Source of the DNA: an uncultured delta proteobacterium
Lineage (GTDB): Bacteria; Myxococcota_A; Polyangia; Palsa-1104
Reading direction: 5' to 3'
NCBI GenBank assembly: GCA_963785725.1
Contig: CAWAWS010000007.1
Coordinates: forward strand, 352,001-416,000
Length of the DNA: 64,000 bases
A program made the translations under genes and the position numbers. The notes beneath the pieces were generated by a model that made no database searches, was not told the origin of the DNA, and worked only from the letters and a program-made list of their open reading frames with translations. Positions 5,681 through 25,060 of this stretch are shown piece by piece (position 1 is the stretch's first letter; each line of letters opens with the position of its first letter).

Positions 5681-5820
5681 ACGAGCAAGCGACGGCCTAT
5701 TTGCTGCTCGGCTCGGTCGCGCATCCGACGGGGGCGTTCGATAGCGCTGTCGCGCTGCGCGGATCGCGATAAATTACAGCTCGCGGCGCTGACGCGTTCG
5801 CAAAGGGAATGGTTCAACCA

Positions 5821-6186: not shown

Positions 6187-6437
6187 AGAAGCCGCAAATT
6201 CTCGTCGGTGTGGCCGGGCTGGCGCTCGGTCTGTTGCTCGGCGGCGCGTTCATCGGTCGCGCGCATGCGCAGCAGCCGGGCGCACGCTTTCAGTACATGT
6301 GCCAGACGAAGCTGAACAAAATCTGGACCCCCGAAGCGCAAGCCAGGCTCAACGAGCTGGGAAGCCAGGGCTGGCAGCTCTTGCCCACGCGCAGCCCAAT
6401 GAACGAGGACGTCTATTGCTACGAGCGTCGCTTCTGA
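6183..6437 (+). CDS. Small secreted hypothetical protein
   Basis: ATGA overlap with the ferredoxin stop, signal peptide ending AHA, LNELGSQGWQL motif. Confidence 0.75.
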   Translation: MKKPQILVGVAGLALGLLLGGAFIGRAHAQQPGARFQYMCQTKLNKIWTPEAQARLNELGSQGWQLLPTRSPMNEDVYCYERRF

Positions 6438-6485
6438 ATGGTTTAACCAATCTTCGGATTGGTTAAACCACTCGTCGCTGCCGTC

Positions 6486-7961
<1,476 letters not shown>

Positions 7962-7978
7962 AGGGAATGGTTAAACCA

Positions 7979-9520
7979 ATGACAACGCCAAGTGAGACGA
8001 CGTTTCAGCCGCAATTCCCCGAGCAGTTCAACATGGCGCGCTACTTCCTCGACGCGCGGATCGAAGAGGGGCGCGGCGATCACGTCGCCATCATCGACGA
8101 CAGCGGGCAGTACACCTATCGCCAGGTGCAAGCGATGGCGAATCAGGTGGGCAACGCGCTGACGGCGATGGGCGTGGGCGTCGAAGATCGCGTGCTCATC
8201 GGGCTCTTCGACAGCGTCGAGTTCGCGGCGGCGTTCTTCGGCATCTTGAAGATCGGCGCCGTCGTGACGATGGTGAATCCCGAGCTGCCCGACGGCGATT
8301 ATCAGCACTACCTCGACTACACGCGGGCGCGCGCGCTCATCGGCGACATTGGTTTGACCAATCGCATTGCGCCCATGATCGAGAGCTCGAAGCTGTTGCG
8401 CGGCGTCTTGAGCGCCGGCGGAAATTGGGCGGCGAAGGTCGGCGGCGCGTCGACGGAGCTCGTGAACTTCGACAGCTCCAAGGACGATCCGTCGGTGTGG
8501 CTGTTCACGTCGGGATCGACGGGGAAACCGAAGGGCGCCGTGCATCTGCAGCATGATTTTGCGTACAACACCGAGTGCTACGCCAAGCCGGTGCTGAAGA
8601 TGCGCGCCGACGACGTGACGCTCGGCGTGCCCAAGCTGTTCTTCGGCTACGCGACGGGCAGCGACTTGATGTTCCCGTTTGCCGTCGGTGCGACGGCCGT
8701 GTTGTTTCGCGAGCGGGCGACGCCGGAGAAGGTGCTCGAGCTGTGCGCCAAGCACCAGGTCACGGTGCTGACGAGCGTGCCGACGATGATCAACAAGATG
8801 GTGCAGGCGGTGGGCGGCAAGCGTTCGCTGGCGCCGTTGCGCGCGGTGATTTCGGCGGGTGAGGCGCTGCCGGCCGAGCTCTATCACCGCTGGATGGAGA
8901 CGTTCGGCGTCGAGATCCTCGACGGTATCGGGTCCGCCGAGCTGTTCCATATTTACATCACGAATCGACCGGGCGAGGCCAAGCCGGGGTCGCTCGGGCG
9001 CATCGTGCCCGGCTACGAGGCGAAGATCGTCGGCGCCGACGGCAACGTCGTCCCCGACGGTGAAATCGGCACGCTGTGGGTCAAGGGCGACTCGGCGGCG
9101 ATCTGCTATTGGCAGGCGCACGAGAAGTCCAAAGAGGTGTTGCGCGGCGATTGGGTCGTGTCGGGAGACCTGTTTCGGCGCGACGGTGAGGGCTACTATT
9201 ATTATGCCGGCCGCGCCGACGACATGCTGAAAGTGGGCGGCATTTGGGTGTCGCCGCTGGAGGTGGAGTCGTGTTTGCTGCGGCATCCGAACGTGCTGGA
9301 GGCGGCGGTCGTCGGCTACGAGGATGACGACGGGCTGGTGAAGTCGTTGGCGTTCGTGGTTCTGCGGGATGCGACGGCGTCGGACGAGCTGGCGCGCGGG
9401 ATTATCGAGCACGCCAAGAGTCAGCTCGTGCATTACAAGGCGCCGCGGAAGGTGGAGTTCGTGGCGGCGCTGCCGCGGAGTGACCGGGGGAAGATCCTGC
9501 GGCGCGAGCTGCGGACGTGA
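7979..9520 (+). CDS. Benzoate/anthranilate-CoA ligase family
   Basis: FTSGSTGKPKGAVH, KLFFGYATG, LDGIGSAE, GRADDMLKVGGIWVSP; start could also be 7967. Confidence 0.92.
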   Translation: MTTPSETTFQPQFPEQFNMARYFLDARIEEGRGDHVAIIDDSGQYTYRQVQAMANQVGNALTAMGVGVEDRVLIGLFDSVEFAAAFFGILKIGAVVTMVNPELPDGDYQHYLDYTRARALIGDIGLTNRIAPMIESSKLLRGVLSAGGNWAAKVGGASTELVNFDSSKDDPSVWLFTSGSTGKPKGAVHLQHDFAYNTECYAKPVLKMRADDVTLGVPKLFFGYATGSDLMFPFAVGATAVLFRERATPEKVLELCAKHQVTVLTSVPTMINKMVQAVGGKRSLAPLRAVISAGEALPAELYHRWMETFGVEILDGIGSAELFHIYITNRPGEAKPGSLGRIVPGYEAKIVGADGNVVPDGEIGTLWVKGDSAAICYWQAHEKSKEVLRGDWVVSGDLFRRDGEGYYYYAGRADDMLKVGGIWVSPLEVESCLLRHPNVLEAAVVGYEDDDGLVKSLAFVVLRDATASDELARGIIEHAKSQLVHYKAPRKVEFVAALPRSDRGKILRRELRT

Positions 9521-10017
9521 CGGCGGCGGGCGCGGGGTTCGCGGCGGGCGCGGGGTTCGCGCGAGGCGCTCGGGGCGCGACGTTGGCGGCGGATGAGGCG
9601 ACGTGCGCGATGTTCGCAACAGGCGAGACGACGTGCGCGATATTCGCGGCGGCTGGCGCGATGTTCGCGACATGCGAGGCTCGGGGCGCGACGTTGGCGG
9701 CGGATGAGGCGACGTGCGCGATGTTGGCGGCAGGCGAAATGACGCGCGCGATATCCGCGGCGGCTACGGCCATGGGCATGTTGTTCGCGGCTGGCGAAAC
9801 AACGAGCGCGACGTTCGCGATGTTCGCGTCCCGGCAACCGACGGTCGCGATGGTCGCGGCAGGGGAGTTCGCGCGAGGCGGCGCGGCCGTCATGTTGGGC
9901 GCGGAGCAGGCGCTCGAAGGCGCGTCGGCGACGCGCGCCGACGGTGCGTTCGCGAGGCGCGCGACCGCGCAATGCGCGTCGGCGACGCGCGCGACCACCG
10001 CTCGAGCCGACGCGTGA
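9517..10017 (+). other. Ala/Thr-rich repetitive ORF filling the operon gap; coding status uncertain
   Basis: GTGA overlaps with both neighbours; internal duplication ARGATLAADEATCAM. Confidence 0.35.
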
Positions 10018-10772
10018 GGCGCCTCGGCGAGCTGACCTGGCCCGAAGCCGAAGCCCTGCGCGCGCGCGAGCCGATCATGCTCGTGCCGATCGGCTCCACC
10101 GAGGCGCACGGCCCGCACTTGCCGCTGGCCACCGACACTATCTTGTCCGACGAGCTGGCGCTGCGCGCCGCCGCTGCGCTCGAAGCCGACGGATACGCCG
10201 CCGTCATCGCGCCCGCGCTCGCCTACGCCATCACCGACTATGCCGGCGATTTCCCGGGCACGATCTCGCTGACCGCTGCGACCGCCGTCGCAGTTTTATC
10301 GGACATCTGCAGCTCGCTCATCGGTCGCGGCTGGCGTCGCGTCTGCCTCGTCAACAGCCACCTCGAGCCGGCGCACGTGACGTCGCTGAAGGACGCTTGC
10401 GCGCAGGCGTTCGCGCGCACCGGCGTCAACGTCGCGTTCGCCGATCAGCTCGATCGGCGCTGGGCGCGCACGCTGACCGACGAGTTCAAGCGCGGCGCCT
10501 GCCACGCGGGAAGCTACGAGACGTCGCTGGTGCTGGCGGCGCGACCGGAGCTCGTACGCGACGAGCTGCGCCGCGGATTAGTGGTTAAACCAATCGACCT
10601 GGCCAAGGCGATGCGCGAAGGCAAGCGGACGTTCATCGAGGCCGGCGCCGACCAGGCGTACTTCGGCGACCCGGCGGGCGCTACGGTTGAAGAGGGCAAC
10701 GACATCTACGCGCGGCTGGTGGTCATGGTCGTCGAGACCGTGCGCGCCGCGTGGCCAATCGAGAATGGTTAA
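10014..10772 (+). CDS. Creatininase-family amidohydrolase
   Basis: LTWPE...VPIGSTEAHGPHLPLATD, FPGTIS, HAGSYETS. Confidence 0.92.
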   Translation: MRRLGELTWPEAEALRAREPIMLVPIGSTEAHGPHLPLATDTILSDELALRAAAALEADGYAAVIAPALAYAITDYAGDFPGTISLTAATAVAVLSDICSSLIGRGWRRVCLVNSHLEPAHVTSLKDACAQAFARTGVNVAFADQLDRRWARTLTDEFKRGACHAGSYETSLVLAARPELVRDELRRGLVVKPIDLAKAMREGKRTFIEAGADQAYFGDPAGATVEEGNDIYARLVVMVVETVRAAWPIENG

Positions 10773-11412
10773 ACCAATTTCGAAATTGGTTTAACCATTC
10801 AGTGGGCGTTCGCGCGACCGACTTCGGAAGCGATCCACGTCGAGCGACGAAATCGATGCGCGAGCCTGCTTCCTCCACGTTCAATCGACGATGGGTGAAG
10901 TCGAGGTCGACGCGCCCGAGATGGGTCGGATAGTTCGTCTCGGCGTATCGACCTGTCTCGGCGTATCGATCGGACTCAACACGCCGATTCGGTATCGGCT
11001 GGGAACGCCAGACGGTGGGAACGCCGACGGAATGCCGAGACGGGTCGGCACGTCATGAGAGACATGCGGCGAGGCGGGGCTTTAAGTTTCAGCCGGGGCC
11101 GGCGCGACGGACCGATTCGGTGTGGCGAGACAGCCGAATTCGGTGCGGGCAGATTCGACGCAACCAACTCATCGGCGCTACCAACTCATCGGCACGTTGA
11201 CACCGATCGGGCAGCCGTAATGGAGTCCGTGCGCCGAGACTGATTCGTGCGGCGAAGTCGAGTCTCGCGCCGCTCCGCCGCGACTCTGCCCGCTCCGATG
11301 GAGCCGAGAGCCAGAGCGCGCCTGACGATGAGAATGCCGTCGCCGCGCTGAGCATAATGGTTAAACCAGTCCTGGAATTGGTTTAACCATTCGGCGGGCG
11401 TTCCCGCCAGCG

Positions 11413-11796
11413 CTACTTGCCTTCGGCGCTGCTTCCCTGCGCGGCCGCCATCTGCGGCGAATCCGTCACCGGACGGCGGTGCCAGTGCGGAACGTGGAAC
11501 TGCCACGCGTGCCCGTCGTAGACGTACTGCGCGCGCACGTACTCGTAGCCCGACTTGCCGGTCACCCAGCGACCGTCTCGCCACACGTGGTGACCGTCGA
11601 TGAAATCCCAGTAACCGGCGACCCAGATCGATCCCGGCGACGGGCAGGGCGTCTTCACTTCCGACTTCGGCTCGGGCGGCTGGTTCGGCACTTCGACGAC
11701 GAGCGTCGGCGTTGTAGAAGACGTCTGCGTCGTTACGGCGGCGCAGCCGAAAGCGGAGAGCGAGAGGCAAAGAGCGATGGAGCGCGTGATGTTCAT
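11413..11796 (-). CDS. Lipoprotein with YXWGXW-type repeats
   Basis: Lipobox AFGC; PSPGSIWVAGYW, HVWRDGRW, FHVPHW. Confidence 0.8.
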   Translation of the reverse strand: MNITRSIALCLSLSAFGCAAVTTQTSSTTPTLVVEVPNQPPEPKSEVKTPCPSPGSIWVAGYWDFIDGHHVWRDGRWVTGKSGYEYVRAQYVYDGHAWQFHVPHWHRRPVTDSPQMAAAQGSSAEGK

Positions 11797-11978
11797 GCGT
11801 GCGAGCTAGAGCAGAAGCCGTGCCACGAGTCGCGCGAGCGCTGCGTCAATCAACCCGCACGCTTGCATGGGACTGCGCCGACCAGATCGGGAAGTACACA
11901 CCCACCTACTGGGGTAAGTAGCCACCATCATTGGGAAACCGGAGTAGCTAAGCTTACGTTAGATGCAAGCGGGTGGGG

Positions 11979-12017
11979 TGAATGAGCGCTCATTCAAAAT
12001 GAGTGAGGGCTCATTCA
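11979..12017. promoter_or_regulatory. Perfect 18-bp palindrome plus a degenerate copy 21 bp downstream; operator-like
   Basis: TGAATGAGCGCTCATTCA (11979) and TGAGTGAGGGCTCATTCA (12000). Confidence 0.6.
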
Positions 12018-12469
12018 GTGGGCGTTGGCGTGCTTACACAAGATGCAACAGGCGGTCGCGGCAAGGTCCGGCGCGCGGGTGCATCGTCGGCGATGTGCTC
12101 GAGTCGATCGCTTATTCACGCGCGAGCCGTGAGCCGTGCGCAGCGCCCAAATCGAAGCGAGCGCCTGAACCGAAGATTGGTTGAACCACGCGTAGCCAGC
12201 AGCGTTGCTTCCGAGTCGTGCGCGCGAACCGAGGAAGCGAGAGATCGTGGCGCGCGTTACGCGGGTCGCGGTTACGTTGTGCGCGTACACCGAGGCGCGA
12301 GAAATCGCGGCGCGTAGCATGCGCTGGGGCTCGAAGTGGAGTTGTGCGAATAGGTCGAGGAGACCAGAATCGTCGCGGGCGTTGCGCGGGCCGCGGCTGG
12401 AAGTGGAGTTGTGCGCGTGGACCTAGAGCGGGAGAAATCACCGCCGCGTGCGCGCGCGACTGATCGAGA

Positions 12470-12800
12470 GTGAATCGTGCGCGAGAGGCTGAAGAAATCG
12501 CGGCGCGTTGTGCGCGCGCGACGGATCGGGATGGAGTCGTGCGCGAGAGGCTAAGAGAGCGCGGCGCGTTACGTGCGCGACGGATCGGGACGGAGTCGTG
12601 CGCGAGAGGCCGAAGAAATCGCGGCGCGTTACGCGCGCGATCGAGATTGAGTCGTGCGCGAGAGGCTAAGGAATCGAGCCGCGCTCTGCGAGCGACGGAT
12701 CGGGATTGAGTCGTGCGCGAGAGCCTGAAGAAATCGCGCTGCGTCGCGCGTGCGGCGGACGCGCTTGAGTCGTGCGCGCGAGCCGAGGGCTGAAGAATCG
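12470..12800. repeat. Degenerate ~58-60 bp tandem repeat, ~6 copies
   Basis: Recurrent GAGTCGTGCGCGAGAGGCT(G)AAGAAATCGCGGCGCG. Confidence 0.8.
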
Positions 12801-13162
12801 CCGCCACACTGCCCGTGCGACGGTCGATGGCCGAGTCGTGGAGCGCCGAGCGTTCGGGAGTCGCCGCCGCATGGCCCGTGCGGCTGGTCGAGACTGCGTC
12901 GTGTGCGTGAACCAGCGCTCGGCGAATCGCGCCGCCCTCGGATTCGCCCGCCGCGTCGAGCTGCGGCGGAGCCCGACGAATCGGTCTGAATTGCCTCTCA
13001 GAGGCCGCGTCGAATCGGCCCGTGTCCACGTTCGGCGCGGCACGCCGCGCCTCCCGCCAGGTCGCGTGGTCGAGCTACGCGAAGTACCGCGCGACCGCGT
13101 CGAATCGGCGCGTCGAGCTGCGTTCGTTCCGTCCGACGCGGCATTCCGCGCGCGTGGTCGAG

Positions 13163-14728
13163 CTACGCGAAGTACCGCGCCTCGTTGTCGAGCAGCCAGC
13201 GCCCGCATCGCGTCGCCAGCGCCATGATCGTAATCTGCGGATTGACGCCGATCGGCCCCGGAAACACGCTGGCGTCGGCGACAAACAGCCCAGGCACATC
13301 CCAGCTCTCGCCGTGCGGATCGACCACCGACGACCGCCGATCGACGCCCATACGACACGTGCCCATCGCGTGCACCGTCAAACACTCGACCTCGTTCTTG
13401 GGGATCGAATGGTTGAACAACTGGCGAATCTCGTCGGGGGAATCGATCGACGTCAGGAAATCGAACGGCAACAGCACTCGCTTGGCGCCCGACGCGAACA
13501 AGATCTCCGACGTCAACGCCACGCCGCGGATGAGGTTGGCGAAATCGCGATCGTTGACGTCGTAGCGCATGCGCGCCTCGCCGAAGAGGTCGAGATCGAC
13601 GGTGCCGGTGCCGGTGTCCTCGACGAGGCAGCCGGCGGCCAGCATCTTGTCGTAGTCCTGCATGATCTCCCACGAGCGCGCGCCGAAGTAGGGCAGCGAC
13701 ATCGCGATGAGCCCCGGCGGCACCATCGACGTCGTGATCATGATGCCTTCGTCGATGAACTCGCGGATCTGGTTGCCCTGGATGGTCCCCTTCCACGCGT
13801 GAATCGGCTTGTCGTACACGCCGATCACTTTCGAGTTCGGATGACACAAGAAGTTGCGCCCGACCTGCCGCGAAGAATTGGTTAAACCATTGCGCAGCAA
13901 CAACGCCGGCGTCTGCACGGCCCCGCACGCCAGCACGACCACCTTCGCGCGCACCGTCAATTTGGGCCCGCGTTTGCCGCTCTCGGGATGACGAAAGCGA
14001 CCGACGATTCCCGTCGCGCGCGAGCCATCGGTGACGACGCGCTCGACTTTGCAGCCGCTGAACAGCCGCCCGCCCGCCGCGAGCAGACGCGGAACATACG
14101 TGACGAGCACCGACTGCTTGGCGTCGGTCGGGCAGCCGAACGCGCAGTTATTGGAGCCGCAGCAGTGCTTCTGGCTGCGCATCGCCGGCACGTAGTGATA
14201 GCCGAGCTTGTCGGCGCCGCGCTCCATGAGCCGCGCGTCTTCACCGACGGACTCGGGATCTTGCGGGCGCACGCTGACGCGCTCTTCGACCTTCGTGAAA
14301 TAGGGATCGAGCGCCTCGGGCGTCATGTCGCTGAGCCCGTGCTCCCACTGCCAGCGCTTGAGCACCTTTTCCGGCGTTCGCCAGCTCATGGCGCCGTTGA
14401 TCACCGTCGAGCCGCCGACGCAGCGCCCTTCGGAGAAGATGATGTTCGGCTTGCCCATGATCGGCGCCGAGCCGGCGTTGCGATAGAGCTTCTTGATCAT
14501 CGTCGGCGCGTTCAGGCCGAAGTCTTTGGACGTGTAGTGTCCGCCCTCTTCGACGACGACGACGGAGCGGCCGCCCTCGGCGAGCTCGGCGGCGATGGCG
14601 CCGCCACCGGCGCCGCTGCCGACGACGACGACGTCGCAGTCGACGACAAGGTCGCGTCCGGAATTGGTTAAACCATTGCCCCCACCGGCGACGCGGCCGG
14701 CCATGACGTCGTCAAATGTCGCCAGCAT
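13163..14728 (-). CDS. GMC family oxidoreductase
   Basis: VVVGSGAGG, GRCVGGSTVING, LACGAVQTPALL, HAMGTCRMG, GVNPQITIMA. Confidence 0.95.
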   Translation of the reverse strand: MLATFDDVMAGRVAGGGNGLTNSGRDLVVDCDVVVVGSGAGGGAIAAELAEGGRSVVVVEEGGHYTSKDFGLNAPTMIKKLYRNAGSAPIMGKPNIIFSEGRCVGGSTVINGAMSWRTPEKVLKRWQWEHGLSDMTPEALDPYFTKVEERVSVRPQDPESVGEDARLMERGADKLGYHYVPAMRSQKHCCGSNNCAFGCPTDAKQSVLVTYVPRLLAAGGRLFSGCKVERVVTDGSRATGIVGRFRHPESGKRGPKLTVRAKVVVLACGAVQTPALLLRNGLTNSSRQVGRNFLCHPNSKVIGVYDKPIHAWKGTIQGNQIREFIDEGIMITTSMVPPGLIAMSLPYFGARSWEIMQDYDKMLAAGCLVEDTGTGTVDLDLFGEARMRYDVNDRDFANLIRGVALTSEILFASGAKRVLLPFDFLTSIDSPDEIRQLFNHSIPKNEVECLTVHAMGTCRMGVDRRSSVVDPHGESWDVPGLFVADASVFPGPIGVNPQITIMALATRCGRWLLDNEARYFA

Positions 14729-15776
14729 GACGGCGCAACCTTTCTGCGCTCACCAGCGCCACGTGCTCGTCGACGGTGTAGCCGAGCAGGGCGCCGACGC
14801 GCGGGTCGGAGTAGTAGGCGAGCAGGCACAGGCCTTTGACCGCCTTGATGAGATCGCGACGCAGGCCCCAGCGCGCGTGCACCCAGCTGTCGACGTAGCG
14901 GCCGCGGCGCGCCAGCGACATCGACGAGAACGGCACCAGCGACGGGCCGAGCAGGAAGGCGCCCAGCTCCAGCATCATGAGCCCGATGGGAAAGAGCAGC
15001 TTCAAGAGCCGCGGCATATGCGGCACATAGTCGTCGATGAAGCGCACGTAGTCGTCGAGCGGCAGCGCCGGCGCGCTGGGCCCGATTGGTTGAACCACTT
15101 CCGCGAGGGCGCGCACGACGCGGCGTGACCACGGCCCGAGCGTGCGCGGCGCCGGCCCGCCGCCGTCGGTGTTGGCGCCGGCCGAGCCGTTCGCCGCGCG
15201 GCCCGGTGTCGACGCGCTGCCTTGGCGGTTCGCGTTCGCGGCGGCAACAGGCGCGCCGTTTGCCGCGCGGGTTGGCGTCGGCGCGCCACCGTTCGCGTTC
15301 GCGCTTGCGTTCGCGCTCGCCGTGGCCGACGCACTGTTCGCCGCTCGGTCGGCCGCAGCTGCGCTGCTTCCGTCTGCGACGTCGCGGCGCGGTGTCGGCG
15401 AGCCTCCACCGATGTCGGGCGCGGTCGCATTCGCGGGCGAGCTGTTGCGGTGGGCCGTCGTCGCCGACTGCGTCCCCGCTTCCGTCAGCGACGACGACGA
15501 CGCTGCTGTCCGCGACGACGCCGCCGCTTCCGTCAGCGACGACGCCGCTGCTGTCAGTGACGACGACGCCGCTGCTGTCAGCGACGACGACGCCGCTTCC
15601 GTCAGCGACGACGACGCCGCTCGCCCGACCATCGACGCGCCGGCCGCCTGCCCGACGTCCATCGCCGTCGACTTCGCCGTCGTCGCGTCGTCGCGCGTCG
15701 TCGCCGCGCCCAGCGCCGAATTGTCGAGCCCACGCGCCGCGGTCGTCGGCGGCGTCGGCTCCGGCGGTCGACTCAA
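14712..15776 (-). CDS. GMC partner protein (gluconate 2-DH subunit-3-like C-terminal ~140 aa) with long Ala/Ser/Thr low-complexity N-terminus; true start uncertain
   Basis: C-terminal PFSSMSLARR...KGLCLLAYYSDPRV..LGY is typical of partners encoded before GMC enzymes; lies between the GntR and GMC genes. Confidence 0.6.
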   Translation of the reverse strand: MSRPPEPTPPTTAARGLDNSALGAATTRDDATTAKSTAMDVGQAAGASMVGRAASSSLTEAASSSLTAAASSSLTAAASSLTEAAASSRTAASSSSLTEAGTQSATTAHRNSSPANATAPDIGGGSPTPRRDVADGSSAAAADRAANSASATASANASANANGGAPTPTRAANGAPVAAANANRQGSASTPGRAANGSAGANTDGGGPAPRTLGPWSRRVVRALAEVVQPIGPSAPALPLDDYVRFIDDYVPHMPRLLKLLFPIGLMMLELGAFLLGPSLVPFSSMSLARRGRYVDSWVHARWGLRRDLIKAVKGLCLLAYYSDPRVGALLGYTVDEHVALVSAERLRRHAGDI

Positions 15777-16570
15777 CGCTTCCTCTTGGTGCCGCGCGTC
15801 CGCCCGCGCCCGCTCGCCGCCGCAGTCTCGTCATCGAGCCGCTCCGGCGCCAGCTGCCCCAAGACGAGCCCGCTGCGCGATTCGAGCACGTCGGCCATCT
15901 TGCGCCGCGCCTCCTTTTCGTCGCCGGTGCTCATGCGCGTCACGACGTCGTCGAGCGCGTCGAGGTAAGCGCCGTCGATCTTCCACAGCTGCGGATAGCG
16001 CTCGCCGAGATAGGCAAAAATGCGCGCGAACGTATTGAAGACCCAGACCAAGACCGTCGTCTTCGACGCCAGCACGAGGTGGCGATAGAAGTTGATGTCG
16101 GCCAGCACCGCTTCGATCGTGCCGCTCTCGACGACGCGCAGCTCGTCGAGCGCACGGCGCAGCGCGCGCAGCTCGGTCTCGGCGTGCCCACCCGTCGCTG
16201 AATGGACGGCCTGATCGATGAGCTGATCGCGCAGCCGAAACAGCGTGTAGACGGCGTCGAAGCGCTCGTCGATCGGCGTCTCCTCGGCGAGGAAATGCGG
16301 CAGCAAGTTGATCTCGCCCACCGCGCGCCAATCGAGCACCAGTGTGCCGTCGCCTTGCCGCGCGCGCACCAGCTTCTCCGACTCCAGCGTGCGCAGCGCC
16401 TCGCGCAGCGTGTTGCGGTTGGTGCCGAGCTTCAGCGCCAGCTCGCGCTCGGGCGGCAGCCGCGCGCCCGGCTGATAACGGCCGAGCAAGATCTCGCGCC
16501 GCAGCTTCTCGACGACCGTCTCACCACGCGCCCGCCGCGCCGACGGGGGAAATTGGATTGGTTTAACCAT
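15773..16570 (-). CDS. GntR-family, FadR-type transcriptional regulator
   Basis: wHTH: ILLGRYQPGARLPPERELALKLGTNRNTLREALRTL...RQGDGT; the following DWRAVGEINLL resembles the FadR linker. Confidence 0.92.
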   Translation of the reverse strand: MVKPIQFPPSARRARGETVVEKLRREILLGRYQPGARLPPERELALKLGTNRNTLREALRTLESEKLVRARQGDGTLVLDWRAVGEINLLPHFLAEETPIDERFDAVYTLFRLRDQLIDQAVHSATGGHAETELRALRRALDELRVVESGTIEAVLADINFYRHLVLASKTTVLVWVFNTFARIFAYLGERYPQLWKIDGAYLDALDDVVTRMSTGDEKEARRKMADVLESRSGLVLGQLAPERLDDETAAASGRGRTRGTKRKR

Positions 16571-16634
16571 TTGTAGAATTGGTTAAACCAATCGCGGGCA
16601 GTCGTCAATCGCAGTTTCGCTCTATCCTGCTTCC

Positions 16635-17696
16635 GTGACCGCACTCTTCCGCGCCTTTCCGCAGCTGACCGCGCGTATTCCCTGGCTGTCGCTGGGCCGT
16701 TTTCCTACGCGGGTTCAGCGCCTCGAGGGGCTCGTGCCGCCGTCGGTCGAGCTGTGGGTCAAGCGCGACGACGAGAGCGGCGTCGTCTACGGCGGCAACA
16801 AAGTGCGCAAGCTCGAGTTCCTGCTCGCCGAGGCGCGCGCACGCGGCGCACGACGACTGGTCACGCTCGGCGCCATCGGCTCGCACCACGTGCTGGCGAC
16901 GGCCATCTACGGCCGGCAGGCCGGCTTTGCCGTCGACGCCGTCGTGTTTCCGCAGCCGCTGACGCCGCACGTGCGCGAGCAGCTGCTGGCCGACGTCGGC
17001 GCCGGCGCGACGATGGTCGCCACGCGCGGATACGCCGGCGTGCCCTGGGCATTGTGGCGACGGCGGCGCGCGCCGGACGCCGCTTGGATCGCGTCCGGCG
17101 GCTCGTCGCCCACAGGCACGCTCGGTTATGTGTCGGCCGGCCTCGAGCTGCTCGAGCAGATCGGGCGCGACGAGCTGCCGGCGCCGGATGTCGTCTATGT
17201 CGCGCTCGGCTCGTGCGGGACGGCGGCCGGACTGCTGCTTGGGCTCGCCGGCGCGCCGTCGTTGCCGCCGTCGAAGGCGCAGCTGACGGCAGTGCGTGTC
17301 GTCGATCGCATCGTCGCCAACGCGCGGGTGACGCGCGGGCTGGCGCGGCGGACGGCGCGGCTGTTGTCGGAGCGCGGTGTCGATTGGTTTAACCATTGCT
17401 CGTTACCGTCGCTGCGAGTCGAGCATGGGCAGTTCGGCGGCGGCTACGGGCGCGCCACGAACGCGTCGGAAGCGGCGGTGGCGCGCGCGGCCGCCGTCGG
17501 GCTCGCCCTCGAGCCGACCTACACCGGCAAGGCCATGGCGGCACTGCTCGCCGACGCCGATGCCGGCCGCCTCGACGGCAAGCGCGTCCTGTTCCTACAT
17601 ACGTTCAGCTCGGCCGACCTGTCGCCGCTGATCCTCGCGGCCACGCCTGAGCAGCTACCGCCGTGGCTACGTCGCCATTTCGCCGATGGCAAGTGA
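16635..17696 (+). CDS. D-cysteine desulfhydrase / ACC deaminase family PLP enzyme
   Basis: LWVKRDD...GGNKVRKLEFL, ALGSCGTAAG, LEPTYTGKA. Confidence 0.9.
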   Translation: MTALFRAFPQLTARIPWLSLGRFPTRVQRLEGLVPPSVELWVKRDDESGVVYGGNKVRKLEFLLAEARARGARRLVTLGAIGSHHVLATAIYGRQAGFAVDAVVFPQPLTPHVREQLLADVGAGATMVATRGYAGVPWALWRRRRAPDAAWIASGGSSPTGTLGYVSAGLELLEQIGRDELPAPDVVYVALGSCGTAAGLLLGLAGAPSLPPSKAQLTAVRVVDRIVANARVTRGLARRTARLLSERGVDWFNHCSLPSLRVEHGQFGGGYGRATNASEAAVARAAAVGLALEPTYTGKAMAALLADADAGRLDGKRVLFLHTFSSADLSPLILAATPEQLPPWLRRHFADGK

Positions 17697-17880
17697 CGCG
17701 AGCGCCGATCGACTATCGCCGAGCCCCATTTCGCCGACGGCAAGTGACGCGAGCACCGACCGACTATCGCCCAGCCCCATTTGCCGCTGGTGACGGCGCG
17801 AGCACTGATCGGCTATCGCCCAGCCTCGTTTGCCGCTGGTGACGGCGCGAGCACTGATCGGCTATCGCCGAGCCCCATTT
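17675..17880. repeat. ~50-bp tandem repeat (x4) seeded from the 3' end of the upstream gene
   Basis: CCATTTCGCCGAYGGCAAGTGACGCGAGC..CTATCGCC at 17675, 17726, then degenerating at 17777 and ~17826. Confidence 0.85.
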
Positions 17881-18042
17881 CGTCGCTAGCCTGGAGATTG
17901 GTTAAACCAATCGGCGCGCCATTCCTGCTGTGGGGTGCGACACGTCAGCGGCACTCTGGCGAGATCCAGCAAGCCGAGATCTGCGCCGTACGGACGGTTC
18001 GGCGCCCGGCCCAGCTGAGCTCCAGCGCAATCCAGCCGAATT

Positions 18043-18726
18043 TCAGTCCTGAATGAGAGGGAGGAGATCGGGGAATCGGTCGAGCAACCAGTCGGGCGCG
18101 TGGGGCTTCAGGCCGTCGCCGCCGAGGACGCCGTAAGTGACTCCGCACGTGCGCATCCCGGCCGCGCGTCCGGCGAGGACGTCGCGCTCGGTGTCGCCGA
18201 CCATGAGCCCGCGGCTCGGCTCGCAGCCCAACCGCGCTGCGCACGCGAGCAGCAGATCGGGCGCCGGCTTGTGCGGCATCGGCGCTTCCGTCCCCAAGAT
18301 CAGATCGAAGTGCGCCGCTAGCCCGAGGCCACCGAGGACTTTCTCGGCCGTGGCCGTCCGCTTCGTGGTCGCGATCGCCGTGCGCATTCCACGTGCCCGC
18401 AATGGTTCAACCATCGCCAACGTCTCCGGCACGCCGGGAAATGGCCGCGTTCGATCGAGCAGATGCGCCATGTAAAACTCGCGATAAGCCGCGACGAAGC
18501 GGCGATAGCCTTCGGCGCCGGCCCACGCGTGCGGCGCCGGCCGCGCCAGCTCGAAGAACTCCTCGAGCGGCAAGCCGAGCCCGGCGCAGCCGAGCGCGTG
18601 CTCGTCGAGCCGGGCGTCCGCCGGCGGCACGGTCGCCAACGCGTGCACCAACGCTGCGCGAATATCGGCCGTGGAATCGACCAGCGTCCCGTCGAGATCG
18701 AAGCAAATGAGAGCGAACTTCGGCAA
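18043..18726 (-). CDS. HAD hydrolase, phosphoglycolate-phosphatase-like
   Basis: FDLDGTLVDS, HKPAPD, MVGDTERDV. Confidence 0.92.
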   Translation of the reverse strand: MPKFALICFDLDGTLVDSTADIRAALVHALATVPPADARLDEHALGCAGLGLPLEEFFELARPAPHAWAGAEGYRRFVAAYREFYMAHLLDRTRPFPGVPETLAMVEPLRARGMRTAIATTKRTATAEKVLGGLGLAAHFDLILGTEAPMPHKPAPDLLLACAARLGCEPSRGLMVGDTERDVLAGRAAGMRTCGVTYGVLGGDGLKPHAPDWLLDRFPDLLPLIQD

Positions 18727-18945
18727 TGGTTAAACCAATCGCAGCAGAGGGTTGAATCGATCGACACCACGGATCTCTTGACCGGCGCAAGGGTTAAGCC
18801 GATCCGCGCAGCGGATCAAGCAGTCGGCGCAATGGTTAAACCAATCGGCGCAGCGGATCAAGCCGGAGCGGATGGTTAGCCAATCGGCGCAATGGTCGAC
18901 CGAGCGGCACACCGTTGGAGCGATCCGCCCGTGGTCGACCACCGG

Positions 18946-19070
18946 GCGCAATGGTTAAACCAGTTGGCGCAATGGTTAAACCAGTCGGCGCAATGGTTAA
19001 ACCAGTTGGCGCAATGGTCAAACCAGTGGGCGCAATGGTCGAACCAGTGGGCGCAATGGTTTAACCAATC
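18946..19070. repeat. Array of six palindromic sites with an exact 21-bp period
   Basis: Unit GCGCAATGGTTAAACCAGTTG; cores at 18952, 18973, 18994, 19015, 19036, 19057; degenerate copies extend back to ~18727. Confidence 0.95.
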
Positions 19071-19848
19071 AGTCGACGCAGACGAGAACGACGGTGACGT
19101 TGTCCTTGCCGCCGCGATCGTTGGCCAGCTGCACGAGCCGCTCGGGGGCCATCTCGATCGGACCCGCTTGCAGCAGCTCCTCTAGCTCCGTGCCTTGCAG
19201 ATAGCCGTGTAGACCGTCGGAGCAGAGGATGTAGGCGTCGCCGGCCTGTACCTCGATCTCGCGCGTGTCGACCTCGACGTAGTCTTTGTGTCCGACGGCG
19301 CGCGTGATGACGTTCTTGCCCTTCATCGTCCGCGCTTCCTCGGCGTTGATGAGACCTTGCTTCAGCTTATAGTTCACTAGCGTATGATCTTCGGTGAGCT
19401 GCGTGGCGACGCCGCGACGGACGCGATAGACGCGCGAATCTCCGACCTGCGCGACGAAGCCGTTGGAGCCGGCGATGAGCAGCGCCGAGATGGTCGTCGA
19501 CATGCCCTTCTGCGACGGGTCGAGCTCGGCCAAGCCGAAGATCATGTAGCAGGCGCTCTGGACGGCGCTTTCGAGCAGGCGGCGGACGACCTCGCGCAGC
19601 TCGTCGCGGCCCGGCTCCTGTAGGAATCCGTTGATTCCGGCTCGGCCTTGGCGCACGAAGCCGTCGATCTGATCGACCGCTTCCTGGCTGGCGACTTCGC
19701 CTTTGGCGTGGCCGCCGACGCCATCCGCGACGACGTAGAGGCCGAGCGCGTCGTTGCGGCAGAACGCGTCTTCGTTGTGCGGCCGGCGGCGACCGCGGTC
19801 GGTGAGCCCAAAGGAACGTACTCGCGTAGGCGAGGGCACCTTTGGCAT
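19069..19848 (-). CDS. PP2C-type Ser/Thr phosphatase
   Basis: GRRRPHNED, VVADGVGGH, GDSRVY, LCSDGL, GGKDNVT. Confidence 0.95.
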   Translation of the reverse strand: MPKVPSPTRVRSFGLTDRGRRRPHNEDAFCRNDALGLYVVADGVGGHAKGEVASQEAVDQIDGFVRQGRAGINGFLQEPGRDELREVVRRLLESAVQSACYMIFGLAELDPSQKGMSTTISALLIAGSNGFVAQVGDSRVYRVRRGVATQLTEDHTLVNYKLKQGLINAEEARTMKGKNVITRAVGHKDYVEVDTREIEVQAGDAYILCSDGLHGYLQGTELEELLQAGPIEMAPERLVQLANDRGGKDNVTVVLVCVD

Positions 19849-21039
19849 CGTACAGGGCCGGTGGAGCGTCGGCAAGATCGGCGGATGGTCCGCGCGCGGG
19901 CAGGCACATTGTCCGACGCGCGAGCACATGGGCGCGCGTCGGCGATGGTCTGTGCACGGCGGAGGAAGCGCGCAGCGAAGTCGCGCGTTGGCTGCGCTGC
20001 GCGGTTTCGTCGGTAGCGAGGTGGTCGAACGGCTTCGTCGGTGGCAAGGCCTGGGAGGTTTCGTCTGGCGAGGCGGCCGACAGTTTTGTCTATCGCGAAG
20101 GACGCGGAACGGCTTCGTTAGTGACTAAAGCCGTCGGCGGCTCACCGGCGGCGATGGCTGCAGCCGGCCTCGTCGGTGTCGATGGCCACGGCTGTAAGGA
20201 TTGACAAGGCGATGCTGCAGCCGGCTTCGTCGGTGTCGAGGCGCGGCTACAGGATTGACGGTAGCTCGCTTCGCCTCTCCCACTCTACGGCAGGCCGTCG
20301 ACGACTGCCGCCGATCCGTCGCTGTCTTGAACGCCCACGTTCGTAGTGCGCTCCCCAATCGCGTTCGCGTGTCCGCTATGCGTGTCGACAAAAAGCCATG
20401 GCGCTGGATATTCCGGCGGCGTCATCGACCAGCCAGCGTGTCAAAGAGCCACCAGCATGCGAACATTCGGCCACGTTTATCGACGGGGCTGGCGTTTCGA
20501 AGCGCGCTACTGCGCGAACATTCGGGCAGCCGTTGTAGACGAGCGCGAGTCGAGAAACGCAGCGGTACGCGCTTAGCTCGAGTAGCCTTCGTCGACAAGC
20601 GAGTCTGTCGAAGAATGCACCCATTCTGCTCGCGGTTTTGACGAGTGAGCGTGTCGAAAGCGCGCTGACTCGCGAGCATTCGGGCGGGCGTTGTCGACGA
20701 GCGGGCGTTCGAAAGCTCGGTGGCGCGCACACTTGCGAGCGGCGTTCGTCGATGTCCGCGCCGGTCGAGAAACTGCGCGGTCGCCATCGTCTGCCGCAAT
20801 CGTCATCGAACCAGGTGAATCCCAATAGCGCTGGCAGTCTGCCGCGCTTTTCCAGCGGTCGAGCGCCTCCCGATACTGGAAGGCGCGCGGCGATTGTAAC
20901 CGCGGCCGATCGATCGTCGATGATGACGACGATTGTCCGACATCGCCCACCCGATTTCGCGCGTCACCAATCGTGAATCCCGCCGCGCGCTGCGACCCTT
21001 GCGCGCGGACGAACGTCACAGTGGTTTGACCTTTCTCGC

Positions 21040-21067
21040 TTGACTTCATATTGGCCGGCCGTAGAGT
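21040..21067 (+). promoter_or_regulatory. Putative sigma70 promoter of the HicB-like gene
   Basis: TTGACT-16 bp-TAGAGT, about 210 bp upstream of the ATG. Confidence 0.5.
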
Positions 21068-21275
21068 TGAAGGTGACTCATCGAGCGCCGCCGCGATTTC
21101 ACCAGTAAGGGCCGCGCGCGCGGATTTACGAGCGCGAAATAAAGGGTACACCCCTCCACCTCTAGTCGCAGCCCTCGCCTCGGCGACGGCAATAACGACG
21201 AACGGCAATGTCGCGAAGGCATATTTGGCCTCGCAGACGAAATCGGAAAACGGATTCAATAGGAGATTGATCGGA

Positions 21276-22157
21276 ATGTCGAAACCGAATTACCGCGCCA
21301 CCCTCATCTTCGATACCGACCGCAAAGTCTTCCTCGCCCGCGCTCCCGAGCTGGAGCATTGCAGCGCCGAAGGCGCCAACCGCGCCGAAGCCCTCACCAA
21401 GCTGGAAGAAGAGATCGACGCGCAGCTGGCCAACATGCTGTCGCACGGCTCGACGCCGCCGCGCGCGGTCGACGAAGAGGTTTTCACGGGCGAGATCGCG
21501 GCCAAGGTTTCGAAGCAGCTCCATCGTGAGCTGGCGTTTCAGGCGCGTTCGGAAGGCATCGAGCTCGATCAGATCGTGGGCGAGCTGTTGGCGGCGGCGA
21601 TGGAGTCGCGCAAGCAGACGCGCGGCACCCGCGGCGGCAATCGCGTCGCGCAAGAGCACACGCCGAACGACAACGTCGGCAATCGCTACGAGGGTGGCGG
21701 CGGCGGTGGACCGCGCCCGCAGCGCGGATTCGGCGGACGCGGCGCGAACAACCACTTGCTCGACGATCGCGCCAACTTCATCGAGTACGTGCGCGGGCTC
21801 GAGCAGCAGGGCACTGGTATGACCAATCGTCACGGCGGCGGCGGGCACGGCCAGCCGCGCGGCGACGGCGACCGCGGTGGACGCGGTGGACGCGGCGGAC
21901 GCGGTGGACGTGGCGGCGCCGGCGGACCGCGCGGCGGCAACCCGAGCCATGGCGGACAGAATCGCGGCATGCAGGGCGGCGGTCCGCGTCCGCAGGGCAA
22001 CTTTGGCGGCGGGCACGGCGGCGGCGGCGCGGGCAACGGCGCCGGCGGCAATGGTCACGCGGCGGCGGGCAACGGCGCGCATCACGCGGAAGCGAGCGCG
22101 GCGCCGCAGCACCACGACGCGCCGGCGCACGACCCCGAGTCGGGCGGCAACGTCTAG
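21276..22157 (+). CDS. HicB-like protein (RNase H-like fold plus probable RHH) with a long Gly/Arg-rich tail
   Basis: FLARAPELEHCSAEGANRAEAL and FTGEIAAKVSKQLHRELAFQARSEGI resemble HicB; AGGAG SD; tail RGGRGGRGGRGG. Confidence 0.75.
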   Translation: MSKPNYRATLIFDTDRKVFLARAPELEHCSAEGANRAEALTKLEEEIDAQLANMLSHGSTPPRAVDEEVFTGEIAAKVSKQLHRELAFQARSEGIELDQIVGELLAAAMESRKQTRGTRGGNRVAQEHTPNDNVGNRYEGGGGGGPRPQRGFGGRGANNHLLDDRANFIEYVRGLEQQGTGMTNRHGGGGHGQPRGDGDRGGRGGRGGRGGRGGAGGPRGGNPSHGGQNRGMQGGGPRPQGNFGGGHGGGGAGNGAGGNGHAAAGNGAHHAEASAAPQHHDAPAHDPESGGNV

Positions 22158-23155
22158 TCAGCGAGAGCGCGCGGCTCGCTAGCTGTGATGTCTAAACACA
22201 GCCAGCTGCGCCTTCCGACACCAAACGCAACCTCGACGATTTCGTCCGCTCGCGCGTAAACAAAGCTCGCGCAGTCAATAACGGCTGAACGCAACACGCC
22301 TCGAGCGGTTCCTCTGCTCGCGACGCATGAACGTTCGCGTGGCCGATCGTGGCCAAACCCAAAGTTTCGATCGGCTGCTCCTGTTCGCAATTCCGAAAAC
22401 GCTCGCGCGGCCGATCGTGGCCAAAGACAAACGCGTTTCGAGCGATGCCTGCTGTCGACGACCGTATAAACGTTCGCATGCCGATCACGGCTAAAAGCAA
22501 CGCGTCTCGATCGATTCCTGCTGCTCGCGACTCGACGAGGTTCCCGCGGCCGTCGCGGCCAGCGCAATGCGTTCGCTCGATCCTTTCGGCTCGCGAAGCG
22601 CTCGCACGGCCGATTCGACATAGGGCTCAGCTCGGCAACCCTCGCTTCGCGTTTCCCCGACGTTGTGCGCGCATCGCCGGCACATTCGGCCACGCTTCTC
22701 AGCGCTTGATTTCGATTCGAGCCGCTGTGTTTTTTGCAGCGCACTCCGACGGCGAACGAAGGCGTCGCCCGTTCCAGTTGACGTAAATCCGCGCACGAAG
22801 CGACAGCGAACGAGACGGTCGGCGCGCTGATTTTCCACGCGCGCCGAAATTGGTTAAACCAATTTCGGCACGAAGCAGCCGCGCCTCCGCGAGCGCCACG
22901 TCGAGCAGCGAAGTCCCAGTCGATCCCGAATCTCGACTGCCGCGGATTTGCGAGCGCGCCGGCGCTCGGCCCGGCCGACGTTGCGGCCGCCGGCGCTCGG
23001 CCCGGCCGACGTTGCGGCCGGCGTGCCGGCCCCTCGACAACTGCGCCCAATCTGCACGCCGTCGGCAACGTCCGAGGTCGCTGCGTGACCCAAATCGCCA
23101 CCAAGATCGATTGGTTTGACCAATCGGGACCACGCGCGTGTGATACAATGTTGTC

Positions 23156-25060
23156 GTGGCGACCGAGTCTCCGCCGTCATTCGTGCCCAGCACGTTTGGC
23201 CGCTATCAGCTACTGGAGCGTCTCGCCGTCGGCGGCATGGCCGAGATCTTTCGCGCGCGGCAGTCGGGCGCGCACGGCTTCGAGAAGATCCTCGTCATCA
23301 AGCGCATACTTCCGCACCTCGCCGCCGATCCCGAGTTCCTCGCTATGTTCATCGATGAGGCCAAGCTGCAGTGCGCGCTGCAGCATCCGAAGATCGTCCA
23401 GGTCTTCGAGTTCGGCGAGGTCGACGGGCAATATTACATCGCGCTCGAATACGTCGACGGCATGGACGCGCTCGGCCTCTTGCGCGTCTGCGCCCACCGA
23501 CGACAGCGACTGCCCGTGCGGCTCGCCGTCCACATCGCCTGCGAAGTGCTCGACGCGCTCGATTATTCGCATTCGCAGCGCGGCGCCGACGGTCAGCCGC
23601 TCGGCATCGTTCATCGCGACGTCTCGCCGTCGAACGTCTTCATCTCCCGGCGCGGCGACGTCAAGCTAGGCGACTTCGGCATCGCGCGCGCGACGGAAAA
23701 GCAGCGCCAATCGAAGACGCAGGCCGGCACGCTGAAGGGCAAATACGGCTACATGGCGCCCGAGCAGGTCATCGGCGGCAACATCGACGGGCGCGCTGAC
23801 CTCTTCGCCGTCGGCATCGTGCTCTGCGAGATGTTGATGGGCCGCCGCCTCTTCACCGCGCCCAACGATCTCGACGTGCTGCTCATGGTCCGCGACGCGC
23901 GCCTCGATAGGTTGAACCGCTACGGCGGCGACATTCCGCCGGCGCTGCGCGCGATTCTCGATCGCATTCTCGCGCGCGATCCCGAAGATCGTCAGCCGAC
24001 GGCCGGCGCGCTGCGCGACGAGTTGCAGGAGTTCCTCTTCGATTCCCGTCAGCGCGTCAGCGCCGGTGATTTAGGTGCGTTCCTCGATTCGTTGAAGGAG
24101 CGCGCGTCATCGCCGTCGGTGCAGATCGTCAAGGAGGATTCGGGCCTCATCCTCGTTGGTGAAGATACGCGCGCCAAGCAGGCCGAGGCCGAGCGCAATC
24201 GTCTGGCCATTCGCGAGGCGTCGAAGCAGCCGTCGATCGTTTCGCACGCGATGCAGCTCGAGGAGTCGGGCCCGTTCATCGAGGAGGCGTCGTCGCCGAA
24301 GCAGAGCCCAGACGGCGCCGAGCGCACGCCCGTCGAAGAGGTTCAACCAGCTGACGCCAAGGGTGAGTTCGCGGACGTCTCGGCCGTGCGCCTCTTGGCG
24401 CGCCTCGCCGCCGATCGCGAAACGGGGCAGCTCGTCATCGAGCGCGGGCAGGTGTCGAAGGAGATCTTCCTCGTCGATGGCGCGCCCGAGTTCGTTTCGT
24501 CCAACGTTCCCACCGAGCGCTTCGGCGAATATTTGGTCGCGCGCGGGGTCATTTCCGCCGGCGAATTATCGATGGCGCTGGCGATTTTGCCGCGCTTTCA
24601 CGGCAAGCTCGGCGATACGCTGGTCGGGCTCAGCTTGCTGCGGCCGCTCGAAGTCTTCCGTCATTTGACGCGGCAAGTGCGCGACAAGATCATCGACGTC
24701 TTCGGCTGGCCGTCGGGGCGCTTTCGCTATTACCGCGGGCGCATGAATAACCGCGAGTCGTTTCCGCTCGGGCTGGACGCGTTCGAAATCCTGGGCGCGG
24801 GCGTGGCTGGCTTGCCGCTCGAGACGGTGCGCGCACGGCTCGACAAGCTGTCGCAGCAGCGGGTGCGACGGATCGATCGCGCGCGGCCGACGCCCGAGCA
24901 TTTCCGCGTCGGCGCCGGTCCACGCGAGCTGTGGCAGCGTCTCGACGGCAAGCGGACCGTGGGCGAGTGGATGCGCCGCTACGATCAGCCGGAGCAGCTG
25001 CTGACACTCTGCCGCACGCTGTTCCTGCTGATCGAATCCGACCTGGCCGCGCTCGACTAA
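23156..25060 (+). CDS. Hanks-type Ser/Thr kinase with C-terminal DUF4388-like domain
   Basis: LAVGGMAEIF, HRDVSPSN, GDFGIA, YMAPEQ; C-terminal ETGQL...KEIFLVDGAP...RFGEYLV. Confidence 0.93.
   Translation: MATESPPSFVPSTFGRYQLLERLAVGGMAEIFRARQSGAHGFEKILVIKRILPHLAADPEFLAMFIDEAKLQCALQHPKIVQVFEFGEVDGQYYIALEYVDGMDALGLLRVCAHRRQRLPVRLAVHIACEVLDALDYSHSQRGADGQPLGIVHRDVSPSNVFISRRGDVKLGDFGIARATEKQRQSKTQAGTLKGKYGYMAPEQVIGGNIDGRADLFAVGIVLCEMLMGRRLFTAPNDLDVLLMVRDARLDRLNRYGGDIPPALRAILDRILARDPEDRQPTAGALRDELQEFLFDSRQRVSAGDLGAFLDSLKERASSPSVQIVKEDSGLILVGEDTRAKQAEAERNRLAIREASKQPSIVSHAMQLEESGPFIEEASSPKQSPDGAERTPVEEVQPADAKGEFADVSAVRLLARLAADRETGQLVIERGQVSKEIFLVDGAPEFVSSNVPTERFGEYLVARGVISAGELSMALAILPRFHGKLGDTLVGLSLLRPLEVFRHLTRQVRDKIIDVFGWPSGRFRYYRGRMNNRESFPLGLDAFEILGAGVAGLPLETVRARLDKLSQQRVRRIDRARPTPEHFRVGAGPRELWQRLDGKRTVGEWMRRYDQPEQLLTLCRTLFLLIESDLAALD

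Follow-up and report, generated by a model that had tools for sequence, protein, structure and literature searches.

A FadR-type GntR repressor gene and the multiplication of its probable operator into four domains of a Polyangia genome

Results

A GntR repressor gene with a pair of palindromes at its start codon

We analysed a 64,000-nucleotide stretch of DNA (the window) from an uncultured delta proteobacterium of the class Polyangia (assembly GCA_963785725.1, contig CAWAWS010000007.1, positions 352,001 to 416,000), in which a 15-bp palindrome recurs around the gene for a GntR-family repressor, P0001. A first-pass annotation had taken this protein to be of the FadR type and had named it the best candidate binder of the palindrome. 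The gene and the elements at its promoter are as follows.

15773..16570, minus strand: GntR repressor gene P0001 of FadR fold, 265 residues, winged helix-turn-helix plus all-helical effector domain (profiles, model)
15776..15811, minus strand: basic C-terminal tail, residues 254-265, family-wide, of low model confidence
16557..16571, no strand: 15-bp palindrome over the start codon, where the gene reads M-V-K-P-I; TGGTTTAACCA at 16559 (scan)
16578..16592, no strand: second 15-bp palindrome, over the inferred -10 region; TGGTTAAACCA at 16580 (scan)
16604..16608, minus strand: conserved, -35-like TTGAC, 37-40 nucleotides before the ATG (alignment)

The assignment to the FadR type was confirmed by Pfam profiles and by the predicted fold. 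The P0001 protein begins MVKPI, terminates GRGRTRGTKRKR, and matches an N-terminal GntR winged helix-turn-helix (PF00392, 76 bits against a cut-off of 27) and a C-terminal FCD domain (PF07729, 26.7 bits against 24.3). In its structure model (predicted local distance difference test score 86.8) everything beyond residue 80 is helix, and a Foldseek search returned E. coli and Vibrio FadR as the nearest folds, with template modelling (TM) scores of 0.64-0.68 and root-mean-square deviations (rmsd) of 3.2-4.5. The domain arrangement is FadR-like (TM 0.66-0.68, rmsd 3.2-3.7 against 1h9g, 1hw1 and 1e2x). A FadR set including an Rv0494-FadR chimera scored 0.62-0.68, and the other FCD regulators PdhR, LldR, NanR and McbR just 0.37-0.51. 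Sequence and profile searches agreed with the structure in placing the FadR group best. P0001 fell below the equivalog cut-offs for E. coli-type FadR (NF003444, 44 of 189 bits; TIGR02812, 42 of 249 bits). It reads D-I-N-F-Y in place of D-x-x-F-H, which we take to be the histidine metal-site motif of metal-binding FCD regulators of the PdhR and LldR type, and the column is without histidine in 28 aligned rows. As the fold is nearest to FadR and the metal-site histidine is lacking, the ligand would likely be a coenzyme A (CoA) thioester; a long-chain acyl-CoA, as for E. coli-type FadR, would be a prediction from the fold alone. Positions equivalent to the FadR DNA contacts R35, R49 and G66, mapped by eye from a residue list in 10.1101/2025.09.25.678588, are kept in P0001; according to the same source, ligand residues are poorly conserved even between proven FadR homologues.

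As the first-pass annotation had claimed, a pair of sites spaced 21 bp apart (16559 and 16580) was found by our scan over the gntR start codon and the divergent promoter region, site 16580 falling in the 64-bp gap between gntR and a divergent pyridoxal phosphate (PLP)-enzyme gene at 16635. Like members of the FadR subfamily, P0001 has a palindrome of the TKGT-N3-ACMA operator type at its own promoter. Six family orthologues have an assembled promoter, and in all six the pair covers the start codon and follows a TTGAC at a constant distance; conservation of the TTGAC was read directly in nine of ten rows and by eye in L003. MVKPI as a chance start of the open reading frame was ruled out, the start being aligned across close orthologues. 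The distance from TTGAC to ATG suggests a leaderless gntR transcript; a sigma-70 consensus scan of the gntR promoter found no full promoter. An ATP-grasp gene elsewhere in the genome (L026:4420-4431, in domain D, described below) likewise starts M-V-K-P, with a site covering its called start codon. A soil contig piece over the gntR promoter (9 differences in 337 bases) was not used as evidence.

The palindrome is concentrated in four domains

The site consensus is AWTGGTTWAACCAWT, 15 bp long. The window holds 67 TGGTNNNACCA sites in 4573-38630 against a chance expectation of 0.20, a count that none of 100 shuffles reached. Genome-wide there are 206 core matches, 165 of which fall into four domains of 11-34 kb.

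Window 4573..38630, no strand: domain A, 67 sites in 34 kb
C7:421-436 kb: domain B, 30 sites
C33:40-64 kb: domain C, 41 sites
C39:304-316 kb: domain D, 27 sites in 11.4 kb

The genome has 96 perfect 15-mers, and every one of them lies inside these domains, which span 86 kb or 1% of the genome; of the 166 sites with at most two mismatches, 163 do so. Near-sites with three, four and five mismatches are enriched 82-, 8- and 3-fold inside the domains, a smooth gradient that fits stepwise gain and decay of sites. The next 30 kb after domain A, up to B, contain no site within four mismatches. Domain A reaches 12 kb to one side of gntR and 22 kb to the other. The earlier claim that the operator had multiplied to dozens of copies near its own gene therefore stands for these 67 sites, but it had missed three further domains elsewhere. 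A cluster centred on the gene was not borne out, as only 67 of the 165 sites lie in the gene's domain; B, C and D are without a GntR gene.

Domain A encodes acyl/aryl-CoA enzymes and GMC, HAD, PP2C, kinase and RluD proteins, together with a LysM transglycosylase, PhaR, an enoyl-CoA hydratase and a LolC-like product. Across the domains, unrelated native genes (including lolA, birA, thyA, folA and peptidase genes) are found besides those for CoA enzymes: acyl-CoA dehydrogenase or enoyl-CoA hydratase genes occur in each of A, B and C, and B has acyl carrier protein (ACP), FabG and ketoacyl synthase genes. With regard to a FadR-type regulon of fatty-acid promoters, the CoA-enzyme genes in A, B and C carry sites and so do unrelated genes; a fadL-like gene (50072-51601) has none. 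The G+C content of domain A is mostly 63-70%, that of the genome 68%, and the 15-mer is AT-rich. Sites lie within called genes in 49 of 165 cases here and in 99 of 199 in seven relatives. Since convergent gaps are occupied in 12 of 13 cases, divergent gaps in 5 of 11, and many sites are intragenic, site placement does not follow promoter logic; gene calls came from a hexamer-based caller that missed some genes, which makes these site classes approximate. A mobile element or island was ruled out because the domain genes are syntenic natives, and an assembly artefact because the same domains occur in independent genomes and in metagenome contigs. Domain D also contains a gene of the CUAEP/CCAEP-tail radical S-adenosylmethionine (seleno)protein family, scoring above the curated cut-off (L026:1246-3030).

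Orthologues and relatives identify the probable binder

That P0001 binds the palindrome, as first proposed, was supported by the motif at promoters of distant orthologues and by co-occurrence of gene and sites within the family; on these sequence comparisons P0001 is very probably the binding protein. Among 401 genomes of the class, 28 had a P0001 match at E<=1e-26, 20 of them distant (genomes G331 and G363 enter only the 401-genome tallies; working labels are used for genomes, contigs and loci). In 13 of the 20 distant orthologues, which share 32-46% identity with P0001 and belong to four other families, the motif occurs at most 220 bp upstream, either alone or in pairs spaced by 18-19 bp, and the host genomes carry 1-11 strict sites each; the remaining seven have no motif within 1.5 kb. 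The five distant genomes checked genome-wide contain dispersed sites only. A strict-flank pattern had no match in these five, because the flanking bases differ at their sites. At 25 metagenome loci, two of which appear to duplicate G004 and G012, a site was present in 16 of the 16 with at least 37% identity and upstream DNA.

Within the family (15 genomes), orthologue and sites occur together in seven genomes, neither occurs in six, and two are discordant. The six relatives without an orthologue have no site in 126 kb of syntenic DNA. Of the discordant genomes, G007 has sites but no gene was found in it, the assembly being 51% complete with the gene's neighbourhood not assembled; G011 has a partial gene with no site in 15.6 kb of syntenic DNA around it, its promoter not being assembled. 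In L301, gntR stands in the same neighbourhood with the promoter pair only (2 sites in 18.3 kb). Comparison across genomes, which had been suggested as a check on the coupling of gene and cluster, thus often found the two uncoupled: 13 of 20 distant orthologues and L301 have promoter sites only, and G011 has none. Such uncoupling refutes gene-centring; it does not refute binding.

The published FadR-subfamily consensus is TKGT-N3-ACMA, with an Asn of the recognition helix linked to A/T beside the centre (PMC4494728). By our own mapping this Asn corresponds to N53 of P0001, and T stands beside the centre in 89% of sites. Four GntR genes were found in the genome (88% complete); only that of P0001 carries the motif and is surrounded by a motif cluster. 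The GntR paralogue on C19 has no site in the surrounding 16 kb and is present in site-free genomes. A PhaR-like DNA-binding protein (32157..32714, minus strand) was rejected as a rival binder, being present in site-free relatives, as is a HicB-like gene of domain A.

The first-pass annotation had further drawn attention to the basic C-terminal tail. It is present, and such tails are unusual here, with 21 cases among the 5665 called proteins, but orthologues whose sites are not multiplied have it too, which rules it out as a mark of co-option and leaves no evidence for co-option from the tail.

Similar motifs were seen with other regulators. In G007, a different GntR gene (L125:2137-2943) has a TGGTAAGACCA site upstream and, downstream, again a small gene and then a GMC oxidoreductase gene. 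Desulfosarcina-like genomes (L212, L214, L218, L244, L250, L267, L271 and similar) have another FadR-like GntR with the same 21-bp promoter pair, and no further sites within 6 kb of that pair.

Spacing and origin of the sites

Neighbouring sites are spaced exactly 21 bp apart in 37 of 161 cases and never more closely, and the spacers mostly differ; within domains, units lie 0.7-1.8 kb apart. The pair spacing in domains tracks that of the promoter pair in each genome, being 21 bp here and mostly 20 bp in G012. Two tandem arrays were found in domain A.

18952..19067, no strand: six sites with a 21-bp period, slippage-type amplification
34194..34288, no strand: five sites with a 21-bp period, in a convergent intergenic gap

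Site-carrying tandem duplications of 21, 43 and about 117 bp also occur. Dispersed sites in this genome have no common flanks of at least 8 bases beyond chance, within or between domains, and because long flanks are not shared, copying and pasting of sites with their flanks was ruled out. Coding sites replace exactly 15 bases in frame, with a median of 7 differences from the closest site-free congener; identity to that congener is 0.55 in the site and 0.76 in the flanks, and residues change in 26 of 30 (p=0.001). Coding site 28300 is present in all six relatives in which that gene is assembled, which suggests an old seed in domain A.

Distribution of domains among relatives and along the chromosome

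Domains A, B and C occur at the same loci in congeners, and domain A surrounds gntR in five congeners and in G012. The genes of domain D are syntenic in five relatives, which have no site in 95 kb; likewise, domain C DNA of G010 and G012 has no site in 56 kb. G012 has two site pairs at a Tad pilus locus that is empty here. Comparison of these sequences shows that domains were gained in single lineages, domain D in this genome alone. The site pair at 7947/7968, ahead of a CoA ligase gene, has been retained in G002, G003 and G004, and G012 has a neighbouring pair. In the tree the family clade is unresolved at its base, and the order of site states is not given by the tree.

Chromosomal positions were taken from G002, whose nine contigs were ordered by end matches to the present genome, one join being made by elimination. 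In the inferred order, A and C share one arm, at distances from dnaA of 0.97-1.0 Mb and 1.06-1.07 Mb, and B is on the opposite arm at about 1.23 Mb; this near-mirror placement of A/C and B is suggestive only. A role at the origin, terminus or centromere was ruled out, as dnaA and parS-like sites lie on C19 and, in the contig order inferred for the 7.9-Mb G002 chromosome, domains A, B and C are about 1.0-1.2 Mb away from the origin. In this genome no dif-like site was found, and GC and FtsK-orienting polar sequence skews were too weak to map the arms. The parS-like sites comprise three at C19:123687-123777, 9 kb from dnaA, and one perfect copy at C16:16102.

Two rearrangements touch domain A. 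Compared with G002, G003, G004, G007 and G010, there is a reciprocal swap between its right edge (window ~38950-39200, at C7:391 kb) and C36:8.6-10.9 kb. The swap has the look of an inversion between arms, or else of a misjoin, by which B came to lie within 30 kb of A here. The PhaR segment (32157-33624) is inverted relative to six relatives, and the gaps on either side of it are site-rich or repeat-rich.

Neighbouring genes

The genes next to gntR and a gene cluster in the left part of domain A are as follows.

13163..14704, minus strand: GMC oxidoreductase (profile)
14712..15776, minus strand: small partner gene of the GMC oxidoreductase, in the repressor's operon, lengthened by a tandem-repeat stretch
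16635..17696, plus strand: divergent PLP enzyme, D-cysteine desulfhydrase/ACC deaminase-like (profile)
940..10772, plus strand: tryptophan dioxygenase, kynureninase, enoyl-CoA hydratase, acyl-CoA dehydrogenase, flavin oxidoreductase and benzoate-CoA-ligase-family genes

Neighbours of the distant orthologues vary, save for a recurring downstream small gene and GMC oxidoreductase gene, or a short-chain dehydrogenase/reductase gene. The order gntR-small gene-GMC recurs at distant orthologue loci and is likely the ancestral target of the repressor. As read from its gene content, the left part of domain A encodes a pathway from tryptophan to aryl-CoA, a source of a possible aryl-CoA ligand.

Discussion

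We propose that an autorepressor has been co-opted into cooperative, looped protein-DNA domains that are released by a CoA thioester, a reading to which we give an even chance. Dimers would very probably bind one palindrome each and autorepress gntR-small gene-GMC. At 20-21 bp spacing two dimers would, with good probability, sit side by side on one helix face, an arrangement that the 21-bp rule fits. Contact between units 0.7-1.8 kb apart would need looping; such touching of units seems slightly favoured and would be the simplest reason why new sites are kept only near old ones. Autoregulation would lift output until the promoter pair is filled, and supply would then scale with site number. 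Release of the assembly by a CoA thioester, in the manner of FadR, seems fairly likely; the ligand might be a fatty acyl-CoA or an aryl-CoA from the adjoining tryptophan pathway. Domains A, B and C may even be held together across two chromosome arms, though this step is rather doubtful. The most far-reaching form of the proposal, a ligand-switched chromosome clamp whose operator has been written base by base into native genes and which would stay looped across both arms until CoA-thioester release, we put forward only tentatively.

Several observations weigh against looped domains. FadR is known as a dimer and is not known to have a bridging role. No feature of the protein splits orthologues with multiplied sites from those without, the recognition helix and the tail being common to both. 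The orthologue of G011 is accompanied by no site in 29 kb of DNA from A and B, and just 9 sites occur in the A and B loci examined in G010. Even spacing of units is significant in just 4 of 11 domains; longer-range helical phasing appeared at 10.7 bp after a period scan, not at 10.5, with some spacings arising from duplications; and pairs of the 21-bp type exist at ordinary promoters as well. Tandem slippage gives part of the site excess here and has also amplified a different palindrome. At coding sites, site-free congeners disagree with one another almost as much (0.53 versus 0.47, p=0.11), so an amino-acid cost was not shown after control for congener variability; because coding sites sit at codons that are variable among congeners too, no fitness cost is shown. 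With respect to the two arms, the D genes do not fit the mirror position, their distance from the G002 origin being about 0.39 Mb, and the mirrored placement itself may have been left behind by symmetric inversions.

Among the alternatives to looped domains, the strongest, although clearly the less probable, is that P0001 binds and the domains are ligand-switched repression zones, with promoter sites and intragenic roadblocks, seeded by CoA-enzyme genes. The acyl-CoA dehydrogenase or enoyl-CoA hydratase genes of A, B and C, the fatty-acid synthesis genes of B and the retained pair before the CoA ligase gene all speak for such zones. They sit poorly, however, with convergent gaps that lack promoters and are filled at least as densely as divergent ones, with thyA, folA, RluD, lolA and Tad pilus genes among the domain genes, with the site-free fadL-like gene, and with L301, where neither the same CoA ligase gene nor the flavin oxidoreductase gene carries a site. 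Somewhat less probable again is a sink or antenna, in which extra sites would soak up repressor, push the autoregulated gene, and buffer or sharpen a few real promoters. The gene is very probably autoregulated and domain A lies around it in five congeners and G012, and a part in decoy titration has been proposed for intragenic sites (PMC9934606). A sink would work anywhere, yet every perfect site lies in 1% of the genome within sharp edges; the gene is missing from three of the four domains, and D has no evident CoA-enzyme target. Between the sink and the architectural role, both raised by the first-pass annotation, the evidence leans, indirectly, to architecture: cooperative dimer contact is favoured over a plain sink because new sites persist only within about 1 kb of old ones, irrespective of promoters.

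It is also conceivable, at a still lower probability, that the sites are a near-neutral by-product, copied locally by slippage and short-range gene conversion and accepted by tolerant codons. The site-carrying tandem duplications, the second amplified palindrome and the position of coding sites at variable codons would all follow. Such a by-product does not readily account for dispersed sites without common flanks, for exact 15-base in-frame replacements with a median of 7 differences, or for an AT-rich 15-mer that lasts across genera in a 68% GC genome, with coding site 28300 in six of six relatives. We consider it very improbable that a different protein binds the domains and that the GntR merely shares the motif at its promoter. 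The gene occurs without a cluster in G011, L301, L302 and all distant orthologues, a cluster occurs without a found gene in the incomplete G007, in related FadR-like clades this motif likewise stands at the regulator's own promoter, and an unrelated Erysipelotrichaceae genome has a similar core genome-wide. Yet only one of the four GntR genes found has the cluster around it, the PhaR and HicB-like genes occur in site-free relatives, and the pair spacing of the domains equals that of the promoter pair, at 21 bp here and 20 bp in G012.

P0001 resembles FadR (E. coli, Vibrio) and Rv0494 (M. tuberculosis) in two-domain fold, a TGGT-N3-ACCA-type palindrome (PMC4494728) and probable autoregulation. 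Its identity to them is about 20%, far under the equivalog cut-offs, and a promoter in the known regulons carries one site or two; here there are 165 near-perfect sites in four domains, about a third of them intragenic. By analogy, the system appears to work most like Rok clusters (PMC11841835, PMC11894783, PMC13404874) and GalR mega-loops, and is a member of neither. In Bacillus subtilis, the repressor Rok occupies eight chromosomal clusters that interact as loops (PMC11841835, PMC11894783), and in both cases sites are concentrated in few discrete clusters. Rok is H-NS-like, prefers foreign DNA rich in AT and does not respond to physico-chemical cues, whereas the protein here is a GntR with a predicted ligand pocket and a strict 15-bp palindrome in native genes of 63-70% GC; looping is demonstrated for Rok and is a proposal from sequence here. 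GalR of E. coli, a repressor that senses a metabolite, has additional sites at genes of unrelated function, and has been proposed to restructure the chromosome via dimer-dimer contacts (PMC5110547). It belongs to the LacI family and its sites are scattered, in contrast to sharp domains with one unit per 0.7-1.8 kb. In parS/ParB and matS/MatP, as in the present system, a repeated palindrome is limited to one part of the chromosome and has a single protein as its reader. Here separate parS-like sites lie near dnaA on C19, and the domains are several, vary between lineages and apparently lie at neither origin nor terminus. For ordinary regulators, most intragenic sites are weak and lack conservation (PMC9934606), unlike the present ones. 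In the literature searched, with subscription papers and supplements outside its scope, neither this regulator in myxobacteria nor a multiplication of GntR operators into domains was described.

How a transcription factor evolves into a nucleoid-structuring protein, or the reverse, is an open question, and this family offers graded states on the DNA side with the protein almost unchanged. The series from L301 (promoter pair) through G010 (sparse) to the 165 sites here would, if the proposal is true, represent a transcription factor becoming a nucleoid protein, and domain D with its site-free orthologues provides a natural control pair. If the domains loop, they would form a sequence-programmed, metabolite-switchable clamp with a 15-bp address, which would be a useful tool too. 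Domain-wide repression or a clustered sink would likewise be without described precedent at such density in the literature searched.

Other observations

Intergenic gaps of this genome are much longer than those of its congeners. Site-free tandem repeats with units of 19-59 bp occupy intergenic positions 5475-5696, 12443-12782, 17675-17882, 31378-31919 and 44926-45132 of the window. Tandem amplification in this genome also affects a second palindrome, GTGATA-N4-TATCAC, with 26-, 62- and 90-bp periods (C33:208300-209482, C39:663845-664025, C16:366186-366488 and C16:22146-22196), and one pair precedes an acyl-CoA synthetase-like gene.

The unrelated 1.6-Mb genome G401 (L261, L280, L339), titled uncultured Erysipelotrichaceae, contains ATGGTNNNACCAT 837 times (control, 1); counts in 40 relatives of G401 were 0-23. 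It has the same core genome-wide, on every contig listed, with 29 core sites in 12 kb, mostly intragenic. G401 has five GntR genes, and the one that was read is HutC-like.

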